Of a stretch of 64,000 bases of DNA, positions 24,258 through 64,000 are shown one piece after another. This stretch comes from Candidatus Nomurabacteria bacterium RIFCSPHIGHO2_02_40_30 (GTDB lineage: Bacteria; Patescibacteriota; Minisyncoccia; Phycocordibacterales; UBA9973), in the NCBI GenBank assembly GCA_001785445.1, contig MFTV01000010.1, positions 101,566 to 165,565 on the forward strand, given 5' to 3'. Every line of letters begins with the position of its first letter. The stretch's first letter is position 1. The notes under the pieces were generated by a model that saw nothing but the letters and a program-made list of their open reading frames with translations, did not search any database and had not been told where the DNA came from. A program made the position numbers and the translations under genes.

Positions 24258-25484
24258 ATGTATTCTAAAAAACTGGTTGAAAATATAGAAAATGAATTGG
24301 AGGCTTTGAAAGGAGCTGGGAAGTTCAAGGTAGAAAGAGAACTTGAAGGAGCGCAAGGTGCAGAAGTAAATATTGCTGGTAAGAAGGTTTTAATGTTCGC
24401 CTCAAATAATTATTTGGGTTTAGCGAATCATCCAGAAATTATAAAAGCCAGCAAGGAAGCTGTGGACAAATACGGCTTTGGTCTTTCTTCGGTTAGATTT
24501 ATCGCTGGCACAGAAACAATACACAAGACTTTGGAAAAAAAGTTAGCAGAATTTTTAGGTACAGAAGATGCCATTCTTTACTCTACGAACTTTATGGCCA
24601 ATTTAGGATTTTTTGCCACCATGACCAATGAAGCTTTCGGTGACGAGACGAGCCATCTAGATGCAATCTATAGTGACGAACTGAATCATGCCAGCATCAT
24701 TGACGCTTTCAAGCTTTGTAAAAAAGAAAATGTAGTAAAGAGAATTTATCCGCACGGTGATATTCCAACGCTCGAGCAAATGCTAGAAGAAGACAAGAGC
24801 AAGAATTACAGATTTAAAATAATCGTAACTGACGGAGTTTTCTCAATGGAAGGGTATTTAGCGAATTTACCGGAAATAAAAAAGCTTGCAGAAAAATATG
24901 AGGCACTGCTTTTCGTAGATGATGCTCATGCAGTAGGAGTACTTGGCAAAACTGGGGCTGGCACACCGGAGTATTACGATTTGCATGGCAAAATTGATAT
25001 TCTGTCAGGAACTTTCGGCAAAGCGCTCGGCGGAGCAATTGGCGGATATATTGCCGGTAAGGCTGAAATAGTAGAACTACTTCGCCAGAAATCTCGTACT
25101 TATCTTTTCTCAAACTCTTTACCTCCTTCTGTAGTCATGGCATCAATTAAAGCGTTAGACTTATTAAAAGAAGAGCTGGAACTTTTAAATAAAGTTATAG
25201 AAAATTCAGAATACTTTAGAGAGGAAGTAAAAAAGTTAGGCTTCAATGTTTTGGAAGGCAACCACCCTATAGTCCCTGTGATGCTAAGTGACGCAGGGCT
25301 GACACAGAAAGTGAGTAGAAAGTTATTAGATAATGGACTTTATGTGGTGGGGCTTTGGTTTCCAGTTGTGCCGGAAGGTGCCGCCCGACTACGCTTTCAA
25401 ATCTCTGCTGCGCACACAAAAGGACAAATCGACCAAGCCATAGAGATAATGCGAGAGGTTGGCAAAGAAATGAAAATAATATAA
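24258..25484 (+). CDS. kbl: 2-amino-3-ketobutyrate CoA ligase (glycine C-acetyltransferase)
   Basis: Motif 'FASNNYLGLANHPEI' and PLP-lysine region 'SGTFGKALGG'. Confidence 0.85.
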   Translation: MYSKKLVENIENELEALKGAGKFKVERELEGAQGAEVNIAGKKVLMFASNNYLGLANHPEIIKASKEAVDKYGFGLSSVRFIAGTETIHKTLEKKLAEFLGTEDAILYSTNFMANLGFFATMTNEAFGDETSHLDAIYSDELNHASIIDAFKLCKKENVVKRIYPHGDIPTLEQMLEEDKSKNYRFKIIVTDGVFSMEGYLANLPEIKKLAEKYEALLFVDDAHAVGVLGKTGAGTPEYYDLHGKIDILSGTFGKALGGAIGGYIAGKAEIVELLRQKSRTYLFSNSLPPSVVMASIKALDLLKEELELLNKVIENSEYFREEVKKLGFNVLEGNHPIVPVMLSDAGLTQKVSRKLLDNGLYVVGLWFPVVPEGAARLRFQISAAHTKGQIDQAIEIMREVGKEMKII

Positions 25485-25495
25485 AGTGTATTTAT

Positions 25496-28429
25496 ATGAT
25501 TTCACGGATATATGTAATGCCTAAAGATAAGGGTACACGGGCAGATTCTTACCTTATTGACTCTAAATTGTCCTTAAAAGAACTCACGAAGCTGGCTAAT
25601 GCCCTTACGAATCCGATTCTAGAAAAATATTATATAAATGAACCCCTGAAAGTGGGGAATTTTTCTTATGCGATTGAAATAGGTTATAAACCGGGAGTAA
25701 CGGATAACGTAAGTCACACTGTTAAAGAAATTGCTACAGATTTACTTAACTTGAAAAAGCACACGGACTTTCAAGTATATACTTCCAAGATTCTTTTCAC
25801 TTCCGGCAATAAAGAAAGGACAGAAAAATTTGCTCTTGAATTGTATAATCCGCTTATTGAGCGAGCCAATATAGCGCAGATTAAAAACGGAAAAATAAAT
25901 TTTCCCAATAAAGCTCCAAAGGTAATTCTTGAAAAAAGAAAACTGGTTGTAAAAGTTCCGCTTAATGTTTCCGATGAAGAACTTATAAAGATAGGAACTT
26001 TGGGAATCAAAGAAGGGAATATTCGGCGCGGGCCGCTGGCGCTCGACTTAGCTTCAATGCACGCCATAAAAGAATACTTTGCCAAACTAAAAAGAACACC
26101 AACGGACATTGAGCTTGAAGCTTTGGCGCAGACATGGTCGGAACACTGCAAGCACACTATTTTTGCGAATCAGATAGATGATATACAAGAAGGGCTATAC
26201 AAGACTTATATAAAAGGAGCGACAAATCTTATCCGTAAACAAAAAAGAGAGAGAGGTCAGCAGGATTTTTGCGTTTCTGTTTTTTCTGATAATTCCGGTG
26301 GAATAATTTTTGACAAAGATTTCTTAATAACCCACAAAGTTGAAACACACAACTCTCCTTCTTTCTTAGATCCGTTTGGAGGAGCTATTACCGGCATTGT
26401 GGGAGTGAATCGCGACACGATAGGCTTCGGGCTGGGGGCTAAGCCAGTGGCTAATACTTACGGATTTTGTTTTGGCGAACCGGACGAAAAAAGGCATCTA
26501 TATTTAGATAAAGAACAAAAGCAAAAAATGCTCCTGCCAAAACGAATCATGGATGGTGTGATAAAAGGCATAAACGTTGGGGGGAACTGCTCTGGTATTC
26601 CGACTATTTCCGGATTTGTAAAATTTGACGAAAGATACAGAGGTAGGCCACTTGTGTTCGCCGGAACAGTAGGATTGATACCGAAAAAAATTGGAGCAAG
26701 ACTTTCTCATGAAAAAAAGGCAAAACCTAGGGACTGTGTCGTAATCATTGGGGGTAGAACAGGAGCAGATGGTATCCATGGAGCCACATTTTCTTCTGTT
26801 GCCACAGATTTTAATTCACCGGCCACGGCAGTGCAAATTGGTGACCCGATAACCCAGAAAAAGTTAAGTGATGCAATAATAAAAGAAGCCCGAGATATGA
26901 ATTTATATAACAGCATCACGGACATCGGTGGCGGTGGAATGTCTTCTTCGGTAGCAGAAATGGCTAAAGAGTCCGGCGGGGTTAAAGTTGATTTGGAAAA
27001 AGTTCCGCTAAAATATCCGGGGCTTCGGCCGTGGGAAATATGGATTTCAGAATCACAGGAACGCATGACTCTCGCTGTGCCGAAGAATAAAATAAAAAAA
27101 CTTTTCAAACTTTTGGAAAGTCGTGAAGTGGAAGCTACGGTAGTGGGAGAATTTACCAATTCCGGCAAGTGTGTGCTCTATTACAAAGGTAAAAAAATAA
27201 TGGACATGGACATGGAGTTCTTACATAACGGACTACCAAAGCATCATTTAAGAACCTCACCCCCGCCCGCGTTAGCAGACCTCCCCCTCTCCTTGGCAAG
27301 GAGAGGGGCTAGAGGTGAGGTATACACAAAAGATCTTGAGAATTTACTTGGAAGTAAAAATCTAAATGGATTTTCTTTCATCTCCGAACAATATGACCAC
27401 GAAGTGCAGGGATCATCTGTGCTAAAACCTCTTTCGGGTCCGGGACGTATCAACACTGACGCCCAAGTTTTCCGTCCAGTTTTAAATTCAAACAAAGGAG
27501 TTGTATTGTCATCTGCACTTTATCCTTCGTATGGAGACATCAGCACCTACGACATGGCTGCTTGTGCGCTTGACACTACTGTTCGAAACGCAGTTGCTTC
27601 TGGCGGCACTCTTTCTCACCTCGCTATATTAGACAACTTCTGTTGGTGCTCTTCGTATGACAAAACACGGCTATATCAGCTCGTAGAAGCTGTAAAAGCC
27701 TGTTATGACTACGCTGTGGGCTATGGCACCCCATTTATTTCTGGCAAGGACAGTATGTTTAATGATTTTAAGGGTTATGACGAGAAGGGTAATCCTGTGG
27801 CCATTTCTATCCCTCCGACGCTTCTAATATCTGCCATAGGGGTAGTGTCGGACTTTTATAAAGTTGTTTCGCCGGAATTCAAAAATGCGGGAGATATAAT
27901 ATATTTGCTAGGAGAAACTCATGATGAACTTGGAGCAAGTGAATACTATAAGATGCTTGGAGAAATTGAAAATAACCCCGCACCAGAGCAAGCTCGGTAC
28001 GGGGCAAGTGTTCCGAAAGTTAACTTAGAAAAAAATCTAAAAACATATCTGGCGCTGGAAAAAGCGATTCAAAAAGAATTGTTGAATTCTTCTCTTTCTG
28101 TAACTTCCGGAGGCTTCGGAATTGCATTGGCAAAAGCCTGTGTTGGCGGAATGCTCGGATGTAAAATAAATGTAGAAAGCATGTCTGCGGGCTCAAATTC
28201 GGCCATGGTGAAGCTTTTCTCTGAAAGCCAAGGGAGGGTATTGGTATCCGTACCTCCTAAAAATACAAGGGAATTTGAAAAAATATTTAAGGATATATCG
28301 AATGCCAGGCTCGGAACAGTTTCCAAAGACAACAAATTTATAATAACAGAAGATAATAAAAAAATAGTGGATTCGTCCGTAAAAAAGCTGTACGACATTT
28401 ATCATAAGTTTTCCAATTCAATGCAATGA
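25496..28429 (+). CDS. purL: Phosphoribosylformylglycinamidine synthase, PurS-PurL fusion (977 aa)
   Basis: ATG at 25496; the ORF-track start at 25355 would overlap kbl. N-terminal ~120 aa is PurS-like, followed by the PurL AIRS domains. Contains an in-frame GC-rich palindromic insert at 27279-27316. Confidence 0.85.
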   Translation: MISRIYVMPKDKGTRADSYLIDSKLSLKELTKLANALTNPILEKYYINEPLKVGNFSYAIEIGYKPGVTDNVSHTVKEIATDLLNLKKHTDFQVYTSKILFTSGNKERTEKFALELYNPLIERANIAQIKNGKINFPNKAPKVILEKRKLVVKVPLNVSDEELIKIGTLGIKEGNIRRGPLALDLASMHAIKEYFAKLKRTPTDIELEALAQTWSEHCKHTIFANQIDDIQEGLYKTYIKGATNLIRKQKRERGQQDFCVSVFSDNSGGIIFDKDFLITHKVETHNSPSFLDPFGGAITGIVGVNRDTIGFGLGAKPVANTYGFCFGEPDEKRHLYLDKEQKQKMLLPKRIMDGVIKGINVGGNCSGIPTISGFVKFDERYRGRPLVFAGTVGLIPKKIGARLSHEKKAKPRDCVVIIGGRTGADGIHGATFSSVATDFNSPATAVQIGDPITQKKLSDAIIKEARDMNLYNSITDIGGGGMSSSVAEMAKESGGVKVDLEKVPLKYPGLRPWEIWISESQERMTLAVPKNKIKKLFKLLESREVEATVVGEFTNSGKCVLYYKGKKIMDMDMEFLHNGLPKHHLRTSPPPALADLPLSLARRGARGEVYTKDLENLLGSKNLNGFSFISEQYDHEVQGSSVLKPLSGPGRINTDAQVFRPVLNSNKGVVLSSALYPSYGDISTYDMAACALDTTVRNAVASGGTLSHLAILDNFCWCSSYDKTRLYQLVEAVKACYDYAVGYGTPFISGKDSMFNDFKGYDEKGNPVAISIPPTLLISAIGVVSDFYKVVSPEFKNAGDIIYLLGETHDELGASEYYKMLGEIENNPAPEQARYGASVPKVNLEKNLKTYLALEKAIQKELLNSSLSVTSGGFGIALAKACVGGMLGCKINVESMSAGSNSAMVKLFSESQGRVLVSVPPKNTREFEKIFKDISNARLGTVSKDNKFIITEDNKKIVDSSVKKLYDIYHKFSNSMQ
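27279..27316. repeat. GC-rich perfect inverted repeat inserted in frame within purL
   Basis: Arms cccctctccttg (27284-27295) and caaggagagggg (27297-27308), 1-nt centre, flanked by outer acctc/gaggt. GC over 65% in a ~37% GC gene. Encodes 'SPPPALADLPLSLARRGARGEV'. Confidence 0.6.
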
Positions 28430-41943: not shown

Positions 41944-43674
41944 ATGATAAGAAAAATGTTCAAAAAAAAGAATAGTGACAAACACTTTTTCGTGGAGCCC
42001 GACGAGATTTTTCTTGACTCAAAAAATTTGCAAAATTTTGACCGTCAGCAATTCGAGGGACGAATAGAAAAATCAATACCTAAAAAGAACATTTTATTTC
42101 TTGGGATTTTATTCCTGCTTTTTTCTGTAACATTTGGCAGCCGTCTGATATATCTGCAAATCCAAAAAGGGGAAGCGTACTTGAAAAGAAGCGAAAATAA
42201 TATTTTAGACAAAGTTATTATCTTTACCGAGAGAGGAATAATCTATGACAGAAATAATGTAAAGCTGGCTTGGAACAGTAGAAATTCGGACGTTGGACGT
42301 CTGAATTCCGGACGTCCAACGTCCGAATCTGAAAACATGCCTATTCGCACATACATGTCACCCGGATTTTCTCATGTATTGGGTTACGTTAGTTACCCAG
42401 CCAAAGACAAGGACGGCAACTATTGGCAAACTGAATTTATGGGTAAAGACGGCTTAGAAAAAGAATACAACGACAAAATCAAAGGAGAAAATGGCTCAAA
42501 AATAATAGAAATAAATGCGTTAAAAGAAATAAATTCCGAAAATATCATAAACATTCCAAAACGAGGGAATAACTTGGTTACAAGTATTGACTCAAAAATT
42601 CAGAAAGAATTGTTTACTTTAATTAAAAATCTGGCAGAAAATAATAACTTTACCGGTGGAGCTGGGATAATAATGGATGTCAGAAATGGAGAAATACTGA
42701 CTTCTACCAGCTTCCCAGAATATAATTCCGAAACTTTATCTCTTGGAGAAGATATATCAGCGATCAATAAGTATATAAACGATAAAAGAAAATTCTTTAT
42801 GGATAGAACTGTTTCCGGACTTTATACTCCAGGCTCGATCGTTAAGCCATTTTTCGCGCTTGGAGCTCTAACTGAAGGCATTATTGACCAATATAAAAAA
42901 ATTCTTTCGACTGGTTCCATCTCAATCCCAAACCCTTATTTTAAAGACCAAAAGACTGTTTTCAAAGACTGGAGAGTAAACGGCTGGACAGATATGAGGG
43001 AGGCTTTGGCTGTTTCTTCTGATGTTTACTTTTACTCTATTGGCGGGGGCTACGGCGACCAAAGAGGCCTTGGTATAACCAATATTGGCAAGTATGCCAG
43101 CCTCTTCGGCATTGGAGAAGCAACTGGGATTGATTTGCCGGACGAAAAAAAGGGCACCATCCCGTCTCCGCAATGGAAAATAGAAAATTTTCAAGGAGAC
43201 CCTTGGCGCATTGGAGACACTTATCATACGGCTATCGGACAATATGGATTCCAAGTTACTCCGGTAGAAATAGTCCGCGCCGTAGCGGCTATAGCAAGTT
43301 ATGGCAAAATGTTAACTCCGCATTTTATACTCAATGACAAAGAAAAGGAAAATAAAACTTCTACAGTCAACTTAAAAAAAGAATACTTTGACATTGTGCG
43401 TGAAGGAATGAGAAAAGCAGTGACAACGGGCACGGCGACAATACTGAATGTGCCCTATGTGCATGTCGCTGTGAAAACCGGAACAGCAGAGCTCGGAGTG
43501 GCTAAAAATAAAGTGAACTCTTGGGTGATGGGCTTCTTGCCGTACGAAGACCCTAAGTACGCTTTCGTGATTATTATGGAGTCGGGCCCCTCGACCGGCG
43601 GCGCTAATGCGTCTTCTGTCATGCGAGGTCTCTTGGACTGGATGTACCTTAACACACCGGAATATTTCGATTAA
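41944..43674 (+). CDS. Penicillin-binding protein 2 / peptidoglycan D,D-transpeptidase
   Basis: N-terminal TM, dimerisation domain, transpeptidase motifs 'SIVKP' (SxxK) and 'KTGT'. Contains an in-frame GC-rich palindrome at 42284-42328. Confidence 0.8.
   Translation: MIRKMFKKKNSDKHFFVEPDEIFLDSKNLQNFDRQQFEGRIEKSIPKKNILFLGILFLLFSVTFGSRLIYLQIQKGEAYLKRSENNILDKVIIFTERGIIYDRNNVKLAWNSRNSDVGRLNSGRPTSESENMPIRTYMSPGFSHVLGYVSYPAKDKDGNYWQTEFMGKDGLEKEYNDKIKGENGSKIIEINALKEINSENIINIPKRGNNLVTSIDSKIQKELFTLIKNLAENNNFTGGAGIIMDVRNGEILTSTSFPEYNSETLSLGEDISAINKYINDKRKFFMDRTVSGLYTPGSIVKPFFALGALTEGIIDQYKKILSTGSISIPNPYFKDQKTVFKDWRVNGWTDMREALAVSSDVYFYSIGGGYGDQRGLGITNIGKYASLFGIGEATGIDLPDEKKGTIPSPQWKIENFQGDPWRIGDTYHTAIGQYGFQVTPVEIVRAVAAIASYGKMLTPHFILNDKEKENKTSTVNLKKEYFDIVREGMRKAVTTGTATILNVPYVHVAVKTGTAELGVAKNKVNSWVMGFLPYEDPKYAFVIIMESGPSTGGANASSVMRGLLDWMYLNTPEYFD
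42284..42328. repeat. GC-rich perfect 18-bp inverted repeat inserted in frame within the PBP2 gene
   Basis: Arms attcggacgttggacgtc (42284-42301) and gacgtccaacgtccgaat (42311-42328), 9-nt spacer tgaattccg. Encodes 'RNSDVGRLNSGRPTSE'. Confidence 0.6.
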
Positions 43675-43950: not shown

Positions 43951-45162
43951 ATGCAAAATTTTTCAAAAACAAGACATATTGCCACTGTCACTTTGCTTGT
44001 TGCCATATTTTTCATCTGGGGTGTTTATCTAGGCATACATAAAAAATCAGAAATAGAGAAAGTCGTGGGTCTTGCCGGAAAAGAGACGCTGGTGACCACA
44101 AAAGCTGACTTTTCTCCTTTTTGGAAGACTTGGAATACTATCAACGAAAAATATCCAAAAGCGAGCACAGTGGAAGACCAGAGTAGGGTCTATGGCGCTA
44201 TTTCAGGGCTCGTGGACTCACTAAATGACCCATATAGCGTGTTTTTCGGCCCAGATGAGGCAAAGTCATTCGAAGAGGAAATAGCCGGTAATTTCAGCGG
44301 AGTCGGCATGGAAGTAGGCATAAAAGACAAGACACTTACGGTCATAGCGCCTCTTAAAGACACCCCTGCCTATAGGGCAAATATTAAGCCCGGCGATAAA
44401 ATTTTAAAGATTGATAAAACAGTCACCACAGGCTTGAGTATAGAAGATGCCATTAAACTGATGCGCGGAGAAAAGGGCACAACAGTGATACTTAGTATTT
44501 CCCGCGAAGGGAGAAAAGACCCGATAGAAATGAAAATCGTACGAGATACTATCAATATACCGACTCTCGATACCGAGTTGCGGAAAGACGGCATCTTTAT
44601 AATAAGGCTTTATAGTTTTTCGGGCAACTCAACCAACCTTTTCCGTGAGGCTATGAAAAAATTTGCGGAGTCTGGAACCGATAAAATGCTCTTGGATTTA
44701 CGGGGAAACCCCGGAGGGTATTTAGAGGCCGCTGTTGATATAGCAAGTTGGTTCCTGCCATCACAGAAAATAATCGCAACCGAGGACTATGGTAACAATA
44801 AAAAAGCGGAAGTTTTCCGAAGTAAAGGCTACAATATATTTAACGACAAACTAAAATTTGTAATTCTGATAGATGGCGGGTCCGCATCAGCATCCGAAAT
44901 AGTTGCCGGCGCCATGCGAGACCACGGACGCGCCAAGCTGGTGGGGAGTCAAAGTTTTGGCAAAGGCTCGGTACAAGAGGCGATAAAGATAACTCCGGAC
45001 ACTCTTTTGAAAATAACAGTAGCTAAATGGCTGACACCAAATGGAACTTCTATCTCTGAAAAAGGACTGACTCCTGACTATGTGGTAGAATTTACTCCGA
45101 AAAATATTAATGATAAAAAAGATGTACAATTAGAGAAAGCAGTGGAAGTATTGCTACAATAA
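43951..45162 (+). CDS. ctpA: Carboxyl-terminal processing protease (S41) with PDZ domain
   Basis: Motifs 'GVGMEVGIKD', PDZ, 'LDLRGNPGGYLEAAVDIASWF', 'DGGSASASEIVAGA'. Confidence 0.8.
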   Translation: MQNFSKTRHIATVTLLVAIFFIWGVYLGIHKKSEIEKVVGLAGKETLVTTKADFSPFWKTWNTINEKYPKASTVEDQSRVYGAISGLVDSLNDPYSVFFGPDEAKSFEEEIAGNFSGVGMEVGIKDKTLTVIAPLKDTPAYRANIKPGDKILKIDKTVTTGLSIEDAIKLMRGEKGTTVILSISREGRKDPIEMKIVRDTINIPTLDTELRKDGIFIIRLYSFSGNSTNLFREAMKKFAESGTDKMLLDLRGNPGGYLEAAVDIASWFLPSQKIIATEDYGNNKKAEVFRSKGYNIFNDKLKFVILIDGGSASASEIVAGAMRDHGRAKLVGSQSFGKGSVQEAIKITPDTLLKITVAKWLTPNGTSISEKGLTPDYVVEFTPKNINDKKDVQLEKAVEVLLQ

Positions 45163-45879: not shown

Positions 45880-45899
45880 ATATTTGTGTTAAAATAATT

Positions 45900-45927
45900 A
45901 CATAATACATTACGTAATGTATTATGT
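45900..45927. promoter_or_regulatory. Perfect 28-bp palindrome centred on TTACGTAA, in the divergent rpmA / Ada-like promoter region
   Basis: acataatacaTTACGTAAtgtattatgt is its own reverse complement. The same core motif recurs at 61365-61398. Confidence 0.45.
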
Positions 45928-45946
45928 AACCAATATAGACTAATAT

Positions 45947-46350: not shown

Positions 46351-46438
46351 GTCGCACAATATATGTTTTGGGTCGTTATCTACGACCTAAAACATGGCGC
46401 CCATTGTGCGACATTTCAAATGCTCGCACAATGTGCTT
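46351..46438. other. Highly structured intergenic element between convergent genes, with three copies of CGCACAAT
   Basis: Nested helices gtcgcacaat/attgtgcgac (46351-60 / 46403-12) and atgttttgggtcg/cgacctaaaacat. Then gcaca-a-tgtgc plus TTTTT, a plus-strand terminator-like hairpin. Confidence 0.35.
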
Positions 46439-62008: not shown

Positions 62009-62035
62009 AACAAGGCTAAGTCTTGTCAAAATTTT

Positions 62036-64000
62036 ATGAAGAAAAAAATATTAAAAATAGGTTTTAGTTTTCTAACAATTTTATTTTTGGGAAGCTTTTT
62101 TGCATCAACAACATTCGCAGCGAATGATGCCTCGGCTATAATTTCCCCCACTGCGGCTTCTACGAACCAAAATCAAACATACACATACACTGTGACCAAC
62201 GGCAGTGCCTCCACTGCCAATCTTGGTTCAGTAGAGATTGTCTTGCCATCCGGATTCGGAACTCCTTCTTCTATAAGTATTTCTTCCGTATCATCCAGTA
62301 AGACATGGTTATTAGGTTCTACCGACGGATATACTAACGGCTTCAATGCATCTACAAGTAAAATTGGAATACAAGCCAGTGGAGCTAGTGATAAGCTCGA
62401 TGTAAACGAATTTGTGGCAGTGCAAGTCACCTCCACTGCGCCCTCTAGCGCGGGGTCGTATGAATGGACTGCTTCTCCCCTTGCTAATCTGGGTTTTAGC
62501 GGCACTCTTTTTAATTTAACTTCTTCGCAACCCACTGTAAATGTTACCGCTCCTGTAACGGTAACGTTCATAATTAGAAATGGCGACACTGTTCTTTACA
62601 ATGGATCCGTCGCTCTTCCCGCTTCAGGCACTGTGTCAATTACCGATTCAAATAGTGTGGCTCATAATGTAAATACCAGAAGTGTCTTGGCTATTTTGAA
62701 AAATATCGATGATGCCAGTAGCGACTTTTCAATTTCCAATTTGCAATACTTTAACTCATTCAATTCGTTTTATCTTAAATGCATACTGCCGAACGGCAGC
62801 TCGGAACTTTGTGATAATTGGCAGTACGCTGTGGGTAGCGTTACTCCCTTCTCTAGTATTGATGCTAGTATACTCTCCGGCGGAGAAACAGTGGGGATTT
62901 ATTTTGGCAACTCGCATCAGCTTGTACTTTCTGCCAACACCATTATTACTGGCGGGTCGTTAAATGTAGCCGCACAATCGTATGACTATGCAAATAATAC
63001 TTGGAATCCACTTACTGGAGTAAATGTGGGTGTAACCTTGCCGAATCCTAATGACCCATGGAGCCCGATTGTTGTTTCGACCCACGCAGTCGATAGCCTT
63101 GGAAATACAAATATTTCACTGTCAACTATAAACACATATACCATTGGCATTGCGGAAGATTTTTATTTTCCTTCTTATAGCCTTACAGTTTCTCCGGTGC
63201 CAAGTGGCACCGGAGGCGGAGGAGCAGTTGTAACACTGCCGTCATCTTTTGACACCTCAAATGCAATTGCTTATTTAAAAAGTGTGCAAGGCGCTGATGG
63301 CTCACTTGGTGACTCTCTTCTCTATAGCGATTGGGCGGCAATTGCTTATGGAGCCCTAAATGTGACTGGTAGCCCAAAAGATAAGCTCCTCACTTACTTT
63401 GATTCTAATAATACAATAAGTTCCCTCTTGACCGACAATGAAAGACATGCCATGGCGCTTCTGGCTCTTGGGCAAAATCCTTATTCATATAACGGCGTAA
63501 ACTATATTAATGCTATCATCAACAGCTTTGACGGCACGCAATTCGGCGACGCAAATTTGATAAATGACGACATCTTCGCGCTTATTCCCCTGGCAAATTC
63601 CGGCTATACTGTAAAGGACGAAATAATTATTAAAGATGTTAATTTTTTAATTTCCAAACAAAAAACAAACGGCTCCTGGGAAGAAAGTGTGGACATAACA
63701 GCGGCGGCAATTCAAGCCTTAAAATCTTTTGAATCCATTGCTGGCATTTCTGGCGCTCTCACAAAAGCGACTGACTATATTATAAGTAAGCAAATTAATG
63801 ACGGCGGCTTTGGAGGTATTTACTCTACAAGCTGGGTAATGCAAGCCATGAGCGCCCTTGGCACGTCGTGGAGCAAGAATAACCACACCCCCATGGACTA
63901 CCTTGCTCTACAGCAGGTAGCAGACGGAGCCGTACTTCCCTCATCCGAAACTCTGCAAAATCGCATTTGGGCTACAAGTTATGCAGTTACGGCGACTTCT
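62036..64000 (+). CDS. Large secreted transcobalamin-like protein: signal peptide, Ser/Thr-rich domain, DUF4430 domain, alpha/alpha-toroid repeats. 3' end truncated by the window.
   Basis: Open frame from ATG 62036 to the window end, with no stop; hand-translated. Signal peptide 'MKKKILKIGFSFLTILFLGSFFASTTFA'. DUF4430-like 'CDNWQYAVGSVTPF...GGETVGIYFG'. Toroid repeats 'ISKQKTNGSWEE' and 'ISKQINDGGFGG'. Not in the ORF track because it has no stop in the window. Confidence 0.6.
   Translation, partial: MKKKILKIGFSFLTILFLGSFFASTTFAANDASAIISPTAASTNQNQTYTYTVTNGSASTANLGSVEIVLPSGFGTPSSISISSVSSSKTWLLGSTDGYTNGFNASTSKIGIQASGASDKLDVNEFVAVQVTSTAPSSAGSYEWTASPLANLGFSGTLFNLTSSQPTVNVTAPVTVTFIIRNGDTVLYNGSVALPASGTVSITDSNSVAHNVNTRSVLAILKNIDDASSDFSISNLQYFNSFNSFYLKCILPNGSSELCDNWQYAVGSVTPFSSIDASILSGGETVGIYFGNSHQLVLSANTIITGGSLNVAAQSYDYANNTWNPLTGVNVGVTLPNPNDPWSPIVVSTHAVDSLGNTNISLSTINTYTIGIAEDFYFPSYSLTVSPVPSGTGGGGAVVTLPSSFDTSNAIAYLKSVQGADGSLGDSLLYSDWAAIAYGALNVTGSPKDKLLTYFDSNNTISSLLTDNERHAMALLALGQNPYSYNGVNYINAIINSFDGTQFGDANLINDDIFALIPLANSGYTVKDEIIIKDVNFLISKQKTNGSWEESVDITAAAIQALKSFESIAGISGALTKATDYIISKQINDGGFGGIYSTSWVMQAMSALGTSWSKNNHTPMDYLALQQVADGAVLPSSETLQNRIWATSYAVTATS

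Follow-up and report, generated by a model that had tools for sequence, protein, structure and literature searches.

In REPINs, two repetitive extragenic palindromic (REP) sequences form a doublet that folds into a hairpin, and these elements are extragenic by definition (Bertels & Rainey, PMC3116915, PMC3337134). The gene of a REP-associated tyrosine transposase (RAYT) that is flanked by REPs has been described as a 'REPtron' arrangement (PMC3337134). Here, we analyse a palindrome that lies within a gene, namely that of the penicillin-binding protein 2 (PBP2) of Candidatus Nomurabacteria bacterium RIFCSPHIGHO2_02_40_30. The gene is part of a 64,000-nt stretch of contig MFTV01000010.1 (assembly GCA_001785445.1, positions 101,566 to 165,565), hereafter referred to as the window. 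We consider it fairly probable (roughly three chances in four) that the palindrome within PBP2 represents one intragenic copy of a hairpin repeat of the REP type, arranged as a head-to-head doublet with REPIN architecture, which is probably mobilised by a RAYT-like enzyme.

Palindromic repeats within coding sequences have been described before. Di Nocera et al. 2013 found singles and dimers of REPs within the genes of known proteins (PMC3733652). The REPs of that study, of the GTAG/CGTC type, carry the tetranucleotide at one end of the unit and a 3-nt tail; their intragenic dimers encode 20-30 residues and were judged to be tolerated rather than functional, with head-to-head dimers predominating (PMC3733652). 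The Rickettsia palindromic elements (RPEs) RPE-4 and RPE-6 were assigned to the CGTC-tagged REPs, and the CGTC-tagged families, including those of Rickettsia, have no associated transposase (PMC3733652). RPEs are also the classic example of palindromes inserted in frame into housekeeping genes (Ogata et al. 2000, via PMC10969869); elements of the RPE-1 type have a size of ~100-150 bp, and no transposase is known for them. The coding palindromes in the mitochondria of Nematomorpha, which are up to 284 bp long, are perfect and translated on both arms (PMC6649704). Within the literature searched, no paper was found that links REP, REPIN or RAYT with Patescibacteria.

A perfect palindrome in a variable loop of PBP2

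The host gene (41944..43674, plus strand) was assigned by its open reading frame (ORF) and Pfam domains and encodes a PBP2 of 576 amino acids with a PBP_dimer (PF03717) and a Transpeptidase domain (PF00905). The complete palindrome at 42284..42328, to which no strand is assigned, reads ATTCGGACGTTGGACGTC-TGAATTCCG-GACGTCCAACGTCCGAAT and comprises 45 nt or 15 codons. Its two arms of 18 nt each, 42284-42301 (ATTCGGACGTTGGACGTC) and 42311-42328, are 100% complementary and enclose the 9-nt spacer TGAATTCCG, which contains GAATTC. The GC content of the arms is 55.6% compared to 38.7% for the whole window, and restriction sites for AatII, EcoRI and BspEI lie within the palindrome. The 15 codons remain inside the open PBP2 frame and encode N114-E128 of the protein, that is residues 114-128 within 'RNSDVGRLNSGRPTSES'.

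In a sliding fold of the entire 64 kb the palindrome was the most stable 50-nt hairpin, with -36.7 kcal/mol compared to a window mean of -6.2 (standard deviation 3.75). The whole element folds into a stem of 19-20 bp. Comparison with dinucleotide shuffles resulted in z-scores of -8.1 for the DNA and -8.6 for the RNA fold, and none of 200 shuffles was equal; as RNA, the palindrome reached -37.4 kcal/mol. Rfam returned for this region of the window solely a spurious, weak match to a plant microRNA (23.6 bits versus 130).

The PBP2 gene and its flanks are base-identical in six independent assemblies (NCBI, JGI, two from ENA and two from Logan), which shows that the palindrome is not a chimeric junction, and the exact PBP2 protein of the window occurs on at least 11 contigs. 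The Pfam match to PBP_dimer picks up at residue 130, directly past the insert; hence, the insert interrupts the non-catalytic, N-terminal part of the protein. An alignment of 120 PBP2 relatives places the doublet in a loop that is bordered by two conserved motifs, 'LAWN' and 'RxYxSPGFSH'. Among the orthologue loci, this loop is hypervariable in sequence as well as in length (9-40 residues, mostly 10-11). None of the aligned orthologues with an identity of 74% or lower contains the insert peptide. The sole near relative, P0002, which is a single-source listing, is 90% identical and has the identical loop peptide. Judged by these alignments, the PBP2 loop tolerates insertions, and the 45-nt insert is confined to the lineage of the window.

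These results agree with most of what a preliminary description of the window, made from the bare sequence, had claimed for the locus. It had reported a perfect 18-bp inverted repeat with a 9-nt spacer containing GAATTC, GC-rich, in frame and situated in the N-terminal non-catalytic region, and all of these features were recovered. It had also named two outcomes that would speak against an inserted element, namely conservation of the peptide in PBP2 orthologues of distant bacteria and a chimeric assembly junction. The former was not seen upon alignment, and the identity of the six assemblies contradicts the latter.

The PBP2 palindrome as a member of a dispersed hairpin family

A metagenome scan with the 17-nt arm TTCGGACGTTGGACGTC as query matched at least 116 stretches. 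About one third of the matches listed are high-GC contigs that contain the 17-mer alone, presumably at the level expected by chance for the size of the collection. The counts of units, doublets and host genes given below were derived from the low-GC contigs (27-49% GC) among the matches listed. In these contigs the 17-mer always lies within a full 21-nt stem-loop, TTCGGACGT-TGG-ACGTCCGAA, which pairs over 9 bp and has a loop of 3 nt (consensus TTCGGACGTTGGACGTCCGAA). The PBP2 palindrome consists of two such units. Unit 1 (42285..42305, plus strand), TTCGGACGT-TGG-ACGTCTGAA, has a 9-bp stem and a TGG loop, differs from the consensus by 1 mismatch and can fold alone. Unit 2 (42307..42327, minus strand) is inverted and reads TCCGGACGT-CCA-ACGTCCGAA on the plus strand, with a CCA loop and again 1 mismatch to the consensus.

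The 21-nt unit is present in more than 80 low-GC, Paceibacteria-like contigs, both as singles and as inverted doublets. We counted at least 127 non-redundant units, 95 of them single and 32 in doublets; some are arranged in tandem, and up to 7 units occur within 2.2 kb (L109). Two long contigs of 307 kb and 332 kb contain 10 and 4 exact arms, respectively, and the density on long contigs is ~1-3 arms per 100 kb. Besides the PBP2 copy, 18 further non-redundant doublets share the outer arms and the arm offset of 26 nt and have a variable 9-nt centre of the form CGnnnnnCG. Many dispersed copies per genome are seen in the relatives, compared to one doublet in the 64 kb of the window genome. Rfam gave no match at gathering score in seven unit-rich loci, and a scan of viral contigs with the 21-nt hairpin unit of PBP2 yielded 0 matches.

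All 19 non-redundant doublets among the matches listed, including the one in PBP2, lie inside open reading frames. Their hosts are purH (four loci), gatB, gatA, guaA, topA, a Mur ligase gene and the genes for ATP synthase gamma, a TrxB-like oxidoreductase and PBP2. Thirteen of the 19 doublets share one reading frame, which yields the small and hydrophilic SDVGRP..GRPTSE, and the consensus element contains no stop in any frame. Of the 95 single units, no more than 32 are located in frames shorter than 80 amino acids. The four aligned purH orthologues, which are 70-77% identical, contain the doublet at three different sites, each of them either filled or empty, and at one of these sites two genes have the doublet and a third has a single unit. 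The filled and empty states at the three purH sites provide direct comparative evidence of gain or loss. The same unit also occurs across lineages in which purH is only 34-37% identical.

Where orthologous sites are occupied in different species, the doublet is 95-97% identical between them, compared to 60-79% for the coding flanks. The orthologous sites compared were L125 10042-10083, L168 11413-11451 and L179 3056-3094 as well as L106 2186-2224 and L155 1525-1563. The codons inside the element show no synonymous variation.

A minority of the single units (in L099, L114, L118, L142 and L174) end in ...ACGTCCGTAG and not in ...ACGTCCGAA. GTAG follows a minority of the copies only, for example in L099, L114 and L118. 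The units ending in ACGTCCGTAG may form a sub-family with a flank that resembles the GTAG tag of classical REPs.

A candidate transposase gene bracketed by the repeat

Clusters of the unit surround an ORF of 232 amino acids at L109 8279-8974. It matches the Pfam family Y1_Tnp (IS200-like) with 23.4 bits at a cut-off of 23, and its sole match in NCBIfam, REP_Tyr_transpos, reaches 24 bits and thus stays far under the cut-off of 80. The homologues keep the motifs YYHIYNRGxxKRDIF, NPNHFHFI (HUH), GALFQGRFKS and RPYVHLNYL. The AlphaFold model of the ORF is of low confidence (predicted local distance difference test, pLDDT, of 53). Among the folds in the Protein Data Bank (PDB), this low-confidence model best matched 4ER8 (E 4.7e-4), a structure of the RAYT of E. 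coli in complex with a REP hairpin, followed by the transposases of IS608 and ISDra2; a sequence search of the PDB with the transposase gave no match. More than 3,200 homologues were found, and the ones named by NCBI belong to Candidatus Paceibacterota, Nomurabacteria and Zambryskibacteria. JGI labels several homologues as 'REP element-mobilizing transposase RayT'. The ORF of L109 can be placed in the Y1/HUH superfamily; its assignment to the RAYT subfamily is weak.

A tblastn search detected the transposase gene in 17 of the fetched loci. In 13 of them one unit is located 21-160 nt upstream, a second one in frame within the gene and a third one at the 3' end. The internal unit lies at about +175 to +197 and reads SDV[G/Q]RP, and the 3' unit lies at about +660 to +686. 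The loop orientation of the units flanking the transposase gene differs from locus to locus. A transposase gene that is bracketed in this way by a dispersed repeat is what defines REP/RAYT systems (PMC3337134). Related genomes carry a candidate transposase for the PBP2-type element.

The internal unit (L109 8476-8496 and its equivalent in 12 loci) is positioned in frame just before the HUH motif. Its stem is lengthened by the adjoining codons to CCAGCGGA-unit-TCCGCTGG. Of 120 transposase homologues (P0121-P0240), at least 63 contain the unit. This in-gene unit could serve self-regulation of the RAYT-like gene or could be a conserved insertion. L118 and L142, two of the loci with units ending in ACGTCCGTAG, carry a more divergent transposase (52% identical).

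Other palindromes in the PBP2 loop, in purL and elsewhere

The PBP2 loop also contains palindromes in other species, and these are of two types. Type A, TGGGAGCCGAGCTCCCA-NN-TGGGAGCTCGGCTCCCA, with the peptide GAELP.GSSAP, is found in L087 (627-716), L088 (10339-10390), L089 (5129-5168) and L029 (892-1002). Type B, AACTTGGTAGTCGGAGCGCCA-AG-TGGCGCTCCGACTACCAAGTT, with the arm GGTAGTCGGAGCGCCA and the peptide VVGAP.GAPTT, is found in L035 (1328-1432) and L090 (10353-10394). Both types show paired substitutions on the two arms (GCC/GGC versus GCT/AGC; GCG/CGC versus GCA/TGC), and their centre dinucleotides, AG and CT, are mutual reverse complements. Type A, in turn, consists of two units that each pair over 7 bp and have a loop of 3 nt, again arranged as a doublet; on a neighbour-joining tree of PBP2, this type is scattered and does not form a cluster. 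Neither type recurred in ~1 Mb of fetched loci, and a protein search with composite peptides of the two palindromes gave 71 candidates, none of which scored. A scan of viral contigs with the type A unit resulted in 5 isolated and uninformative matches in unrelated phage contigs. In L029, 10 N together with extra GC-rich bases are located at ~931-940, exactly at the centre of the PBP2-loop palindrome, which suggests that such hairpins disturb assembly or scaffolding.

A palindrome in the purL-like ORF of the window (25355..28429) had been regarded in the preliminary description as related to the one in PBP2, both representing one family of palindromic elements that invade ORFs without disrupting them. 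The purL palindrome, located at 27284-27308, reads CCCCTCTCCTTG-g-CAAGGAGAGGGG followed by CTAGAGGTGAGG. It represents a dispersed family in which the hairpin CCCCTCTCC..GGAGAGGGG is followed after ~4 nt by GGGTGAGG; further members occur in L152, L171, L182 and L196 and close variants in L110 and L123. A search of the window at up to 3 mismatches found no sequence shared between the arms of the purL and PBP2 palindromes, and the grouping of both inserts in one family was rejected. The broader proposal of an ORF-invading family is borne out by the PBP2 palindrome, whose dispersed family comprises 19 doublets in open housekeeping frames; the family of the purL palindrome is a different one. The term palindrome is too simple for the PBP2 element, which is built from two 21-nt hairpin units arranged as a doublet.

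A third GC-rich palindrome inside an ORF, CTCCGGTGCCA-ag-TGGCACCGGAG at window position 63192-63215, encodes ..SPVPSGTGGGG... The respective ORF (62009-64000) runs off the window, and the centre of the palindrome, CCA-AG-TGG, is the same as in types A and B. The window furthermore contains an AT-rich, perfect and spacerless palindrome of 16+16 nt at 45898-45929 (TTACATAATACATTAC/GTAATGTATTATGTAA) and two strong hairpins at 46361-46436, in the gap between the ORFs ending at 45162 and 46453. Related genomes contain more strong palindromes, at L089 6408-6434, L088 21136-21181 and L089 12886-12919. These are a palindrome with 12-bp arms and 100% GC (GCCGGCCCCGCC-tcc-GGCGGGGCCGGC) close to the 3' end of PBP2, a perfect spacerless palindrome of 23+23 nt at the start of an M23 peptidase gene and a 16/17 palindrome in an apparently intergenic stretch.

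Origin and maintenance of the PBP2 copy

According to the explanation that we favour, a RAYT-like enzyme would recognise the folded hairpin on single-stranded DNA and move or copy it in the way IS200/IS605 and RAYT enzymes do, leaving no target-site duplication behind. Selection would then remove insertions that shift the frame, add a stop or harm folding. Copies would persist where the frame is kept, the reading is free of stops and the protein tolerates ~15 extra hydrophilic residues. The copy in PBP2 may owe its survival to its place of insertion, a surface loop in the non-catalytic domain with a length that already varies among orthologues. Its translation product would be 'NSDVGRLNSGRPTSE'. 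The host need not profit from it, and the evidence at hand suggests nothing that would point to such a benefit. Target-site duplications, a check on the elements that the preliminary description had suggested, were not detected beyond chance. This is as expected, because Y1 transposases (IS200/IS605) make none.

Several observations weigh against this explanation or limit it. The insertion into PBP2 is deduced rather than directly observed. The window contains no RAYT-like gene according to tblastn and no other 21-nt unit, although a single doublet per 64 kb is not surprising at a density of ~1-3 arms per 100 kb. The RAYT assignment depends on marginal profile scores and a model of low confidence. 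All doublets found here are in genes and in frame, whereas classical REPINs are extragenic, and the GTAG tag that ends classical RAYT-associated REPs is absent from the units. The element is conserved above its surroundings: it is identical in 37 of 39 columns in three TrxB-like genes with ~60% identical flanks, and in 38 of 39 in two purH genes with flanks of 73-79%. Plain selfish decay does not predict this conservation. Possible reasons for it are repeated insertion at favoured sites, homogenisation of the copies or selection that acts on the hairpin.

The last of these reasons leads to a different view of the family, in which the hairpin is a motif selected by the host, such as a signal for DNA uptake, a binding site of a protein involved in genome maintenance or a signal in the mRNA for stability or pausing. 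Apart from the conservation above the coding flanks and the invariant synonymous positions, the identity of 17-21-mers across genomes with purH as low as 34-37% identical and the retention of the in-frame copy within most transposase homologues would fit such a motif. We nevertheless regard it as rather unlikely, as the Y1 transposase gene is tightly bracketed in 13 loci, which is the signature of REP/RAYT systems, and presence or absence varies among close orthologues at the three purH sites. Moreover, the hosts are unrelated genes in which the positions are loops, and the element is lacking in every PBP2 orthologue of 73% identity or below. Somewhat more room, if still only a minor share of the probability, should be given to the idea that the hairpin family is more than passive. 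It could reflect a maintained RAYT-hairpin partnership, with homogenisation or repair or with self-regulation of the enzyme, or a structure-directed targeting of sites in essential genes. This idea builds on the near-invariant unit across divergent Paceibacteria, synonymous positions in essential genes included, on the in-frame copy conserved within the RAYT-like gene, and on the occurrence of three unrelated perfect palindromes with paired arm changes in one PBP2 loop across species. If targeting took place, the elements would contribute regularly to the evolution of protein loops in ultra-small bacteria.

The palindrome could also have been made locally by short-range template switching (quasipalindrome correction), with one arm being ancestral and the other its copy. 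This process is known to create and perfect or homogenise inverted repeats and to invert spacers (PMC8604942, PMC8794818). The same-loop palindromes of other orthologues, with their paired arm changes and inverted centre dinucleotides, are in line with it, and the left arm has an apparent match in the 'RNSADVV' loop of L007. However, a repeat with the very sequence of the arms recurs in many genomes and at many unrelated loci. A local origin cannot account for these copies and is no longer needed for the PBP2 palindrome, and the similarity to L007 is not significant (score 12, p ~0.6 against shuffles). A de novo origin by template switching was dropped based on the dispersed copies from the metagenome scan and this shuffle test, and we consider it highly improbable; template switching may still help to keep the arms perfect after insertion. 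An even smaller chance is attributed to the possibility that the insert remains untranslated, being removed or skipped at the level of the RNA or the ribosome. Hairpin inserts are bypassed in the mitochondria of yeast relatives, and T4 gene 60 is another case of translational bypassing. The very stable RNA hairpin (-37.4 kcal/mol) and the GGA codons that flank the centre on both sides would suit this mechanism. Nonetheless, all 19 doublets keep the host frame and are free of stops in it, and the skew to the hydrophilic SDVGRP..GRPTSE in 13 of the 19 is predicted by selection on a translated peptide and would be needless under bypassing. An artefact of assembly or amplification, that is a restriction-site-rich junction of the chimeric, foldback or adapter-like kind, can be practically dismissed. 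Foldback chimeras can yield palindromes, and the assembly of the orthologue L029 has its run of N exactly at its own palindrome, but the PBP2 DNA is the same in six assemblies from different projects and assemblers, the reading frame is preserved and the repeat recurs in many unrelated contigs.

With an intragenic copy of a REP-type hairpin repeat, an insert that looks odd in an essential enzyme of the cell wall would be nothing but ordinary mobile DNA. ORF-invading palindromes are real in bacteria of the candidate phyla radiation, and a family of in-frame palindromic elements now has a candidate transposase. On a practical level, inserts of 15 residues will distort domain calls, as seen from the PBP_dimer match that is cut at the insert, as well as alignments and structure predictions.

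Comparison with known systems

The REPIN/RAYT systems are among those that resemble the element most closely. The unit is a ~20-nt imperfect palindrome, and those of the window each differ from the consensus by 1 mismatch. Two inverted units with a short, variable spacer form one long hairpin, and the orientation of a unit can be read only at the centre of the palindrome (TGG/CCA here, TT/AA in Pseudomonas). In related loci, and not in the window, the units lie on both sides of a Y1/HUH transposase gene, which corresponds to the arrangement of a 'REPtron'. Besides the location within genes, differences exist in the spacer, which has 9 nt here compared to 34-110 nt in Pseudomonas, and in the hosts, which are ultra-small Patescibacteria with genomes of ~1 Mb. 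In addition, one unit sequence is here common to many genera.

With the GTAG/CGTC REPs the family shares intragenic, head-to-head dimers. The position of the tag differs, since the consensus ends in TTCGG...CCGAA and CGTC stands beside the loop. Furthermore, the PBP2-type family has an associated candidate transposase, whereas the CGTC families have none. The survey of Di Nocera et al. did not cover the phylum in which the PBP2-type family occurs (PMC3733652). The RPEs of Rickettsia are similar in that a reduced genome contains palindromic repeats which lie in frame within various unrelated housekeeping genes and are compatible with protein function; this is a likeness of behaviour only. The PBP2-type element is shorter, with 43-45 bp compared to ~100-150 bp for RPE-1, and comes with a candidate enzyme.

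The IS200/IS605 elements share the transposase superfamily, the recognition of hairpins on single-stranded DNA and the lack of target-site duplications. In contrast to them, the 45-nt copy of the window has no ORF of its own, and the hairpins flanking the transposase gene are a dispersed repeat, while IS200/IS605 elements have distinct left and right ends. The mitochondrial palindromes of Nematomorpha are likewise perfect inverted repeats in coding sequence, but they have neither a dispersed family nor an associated transposase. Intragenic REP dimers and the RPEs of Rickettsia were already known; what is described here is a new family in a new phylum, which would extend REP/RAYT biology to this phylum and could provide a tractable system for in-frame palindromic elements.

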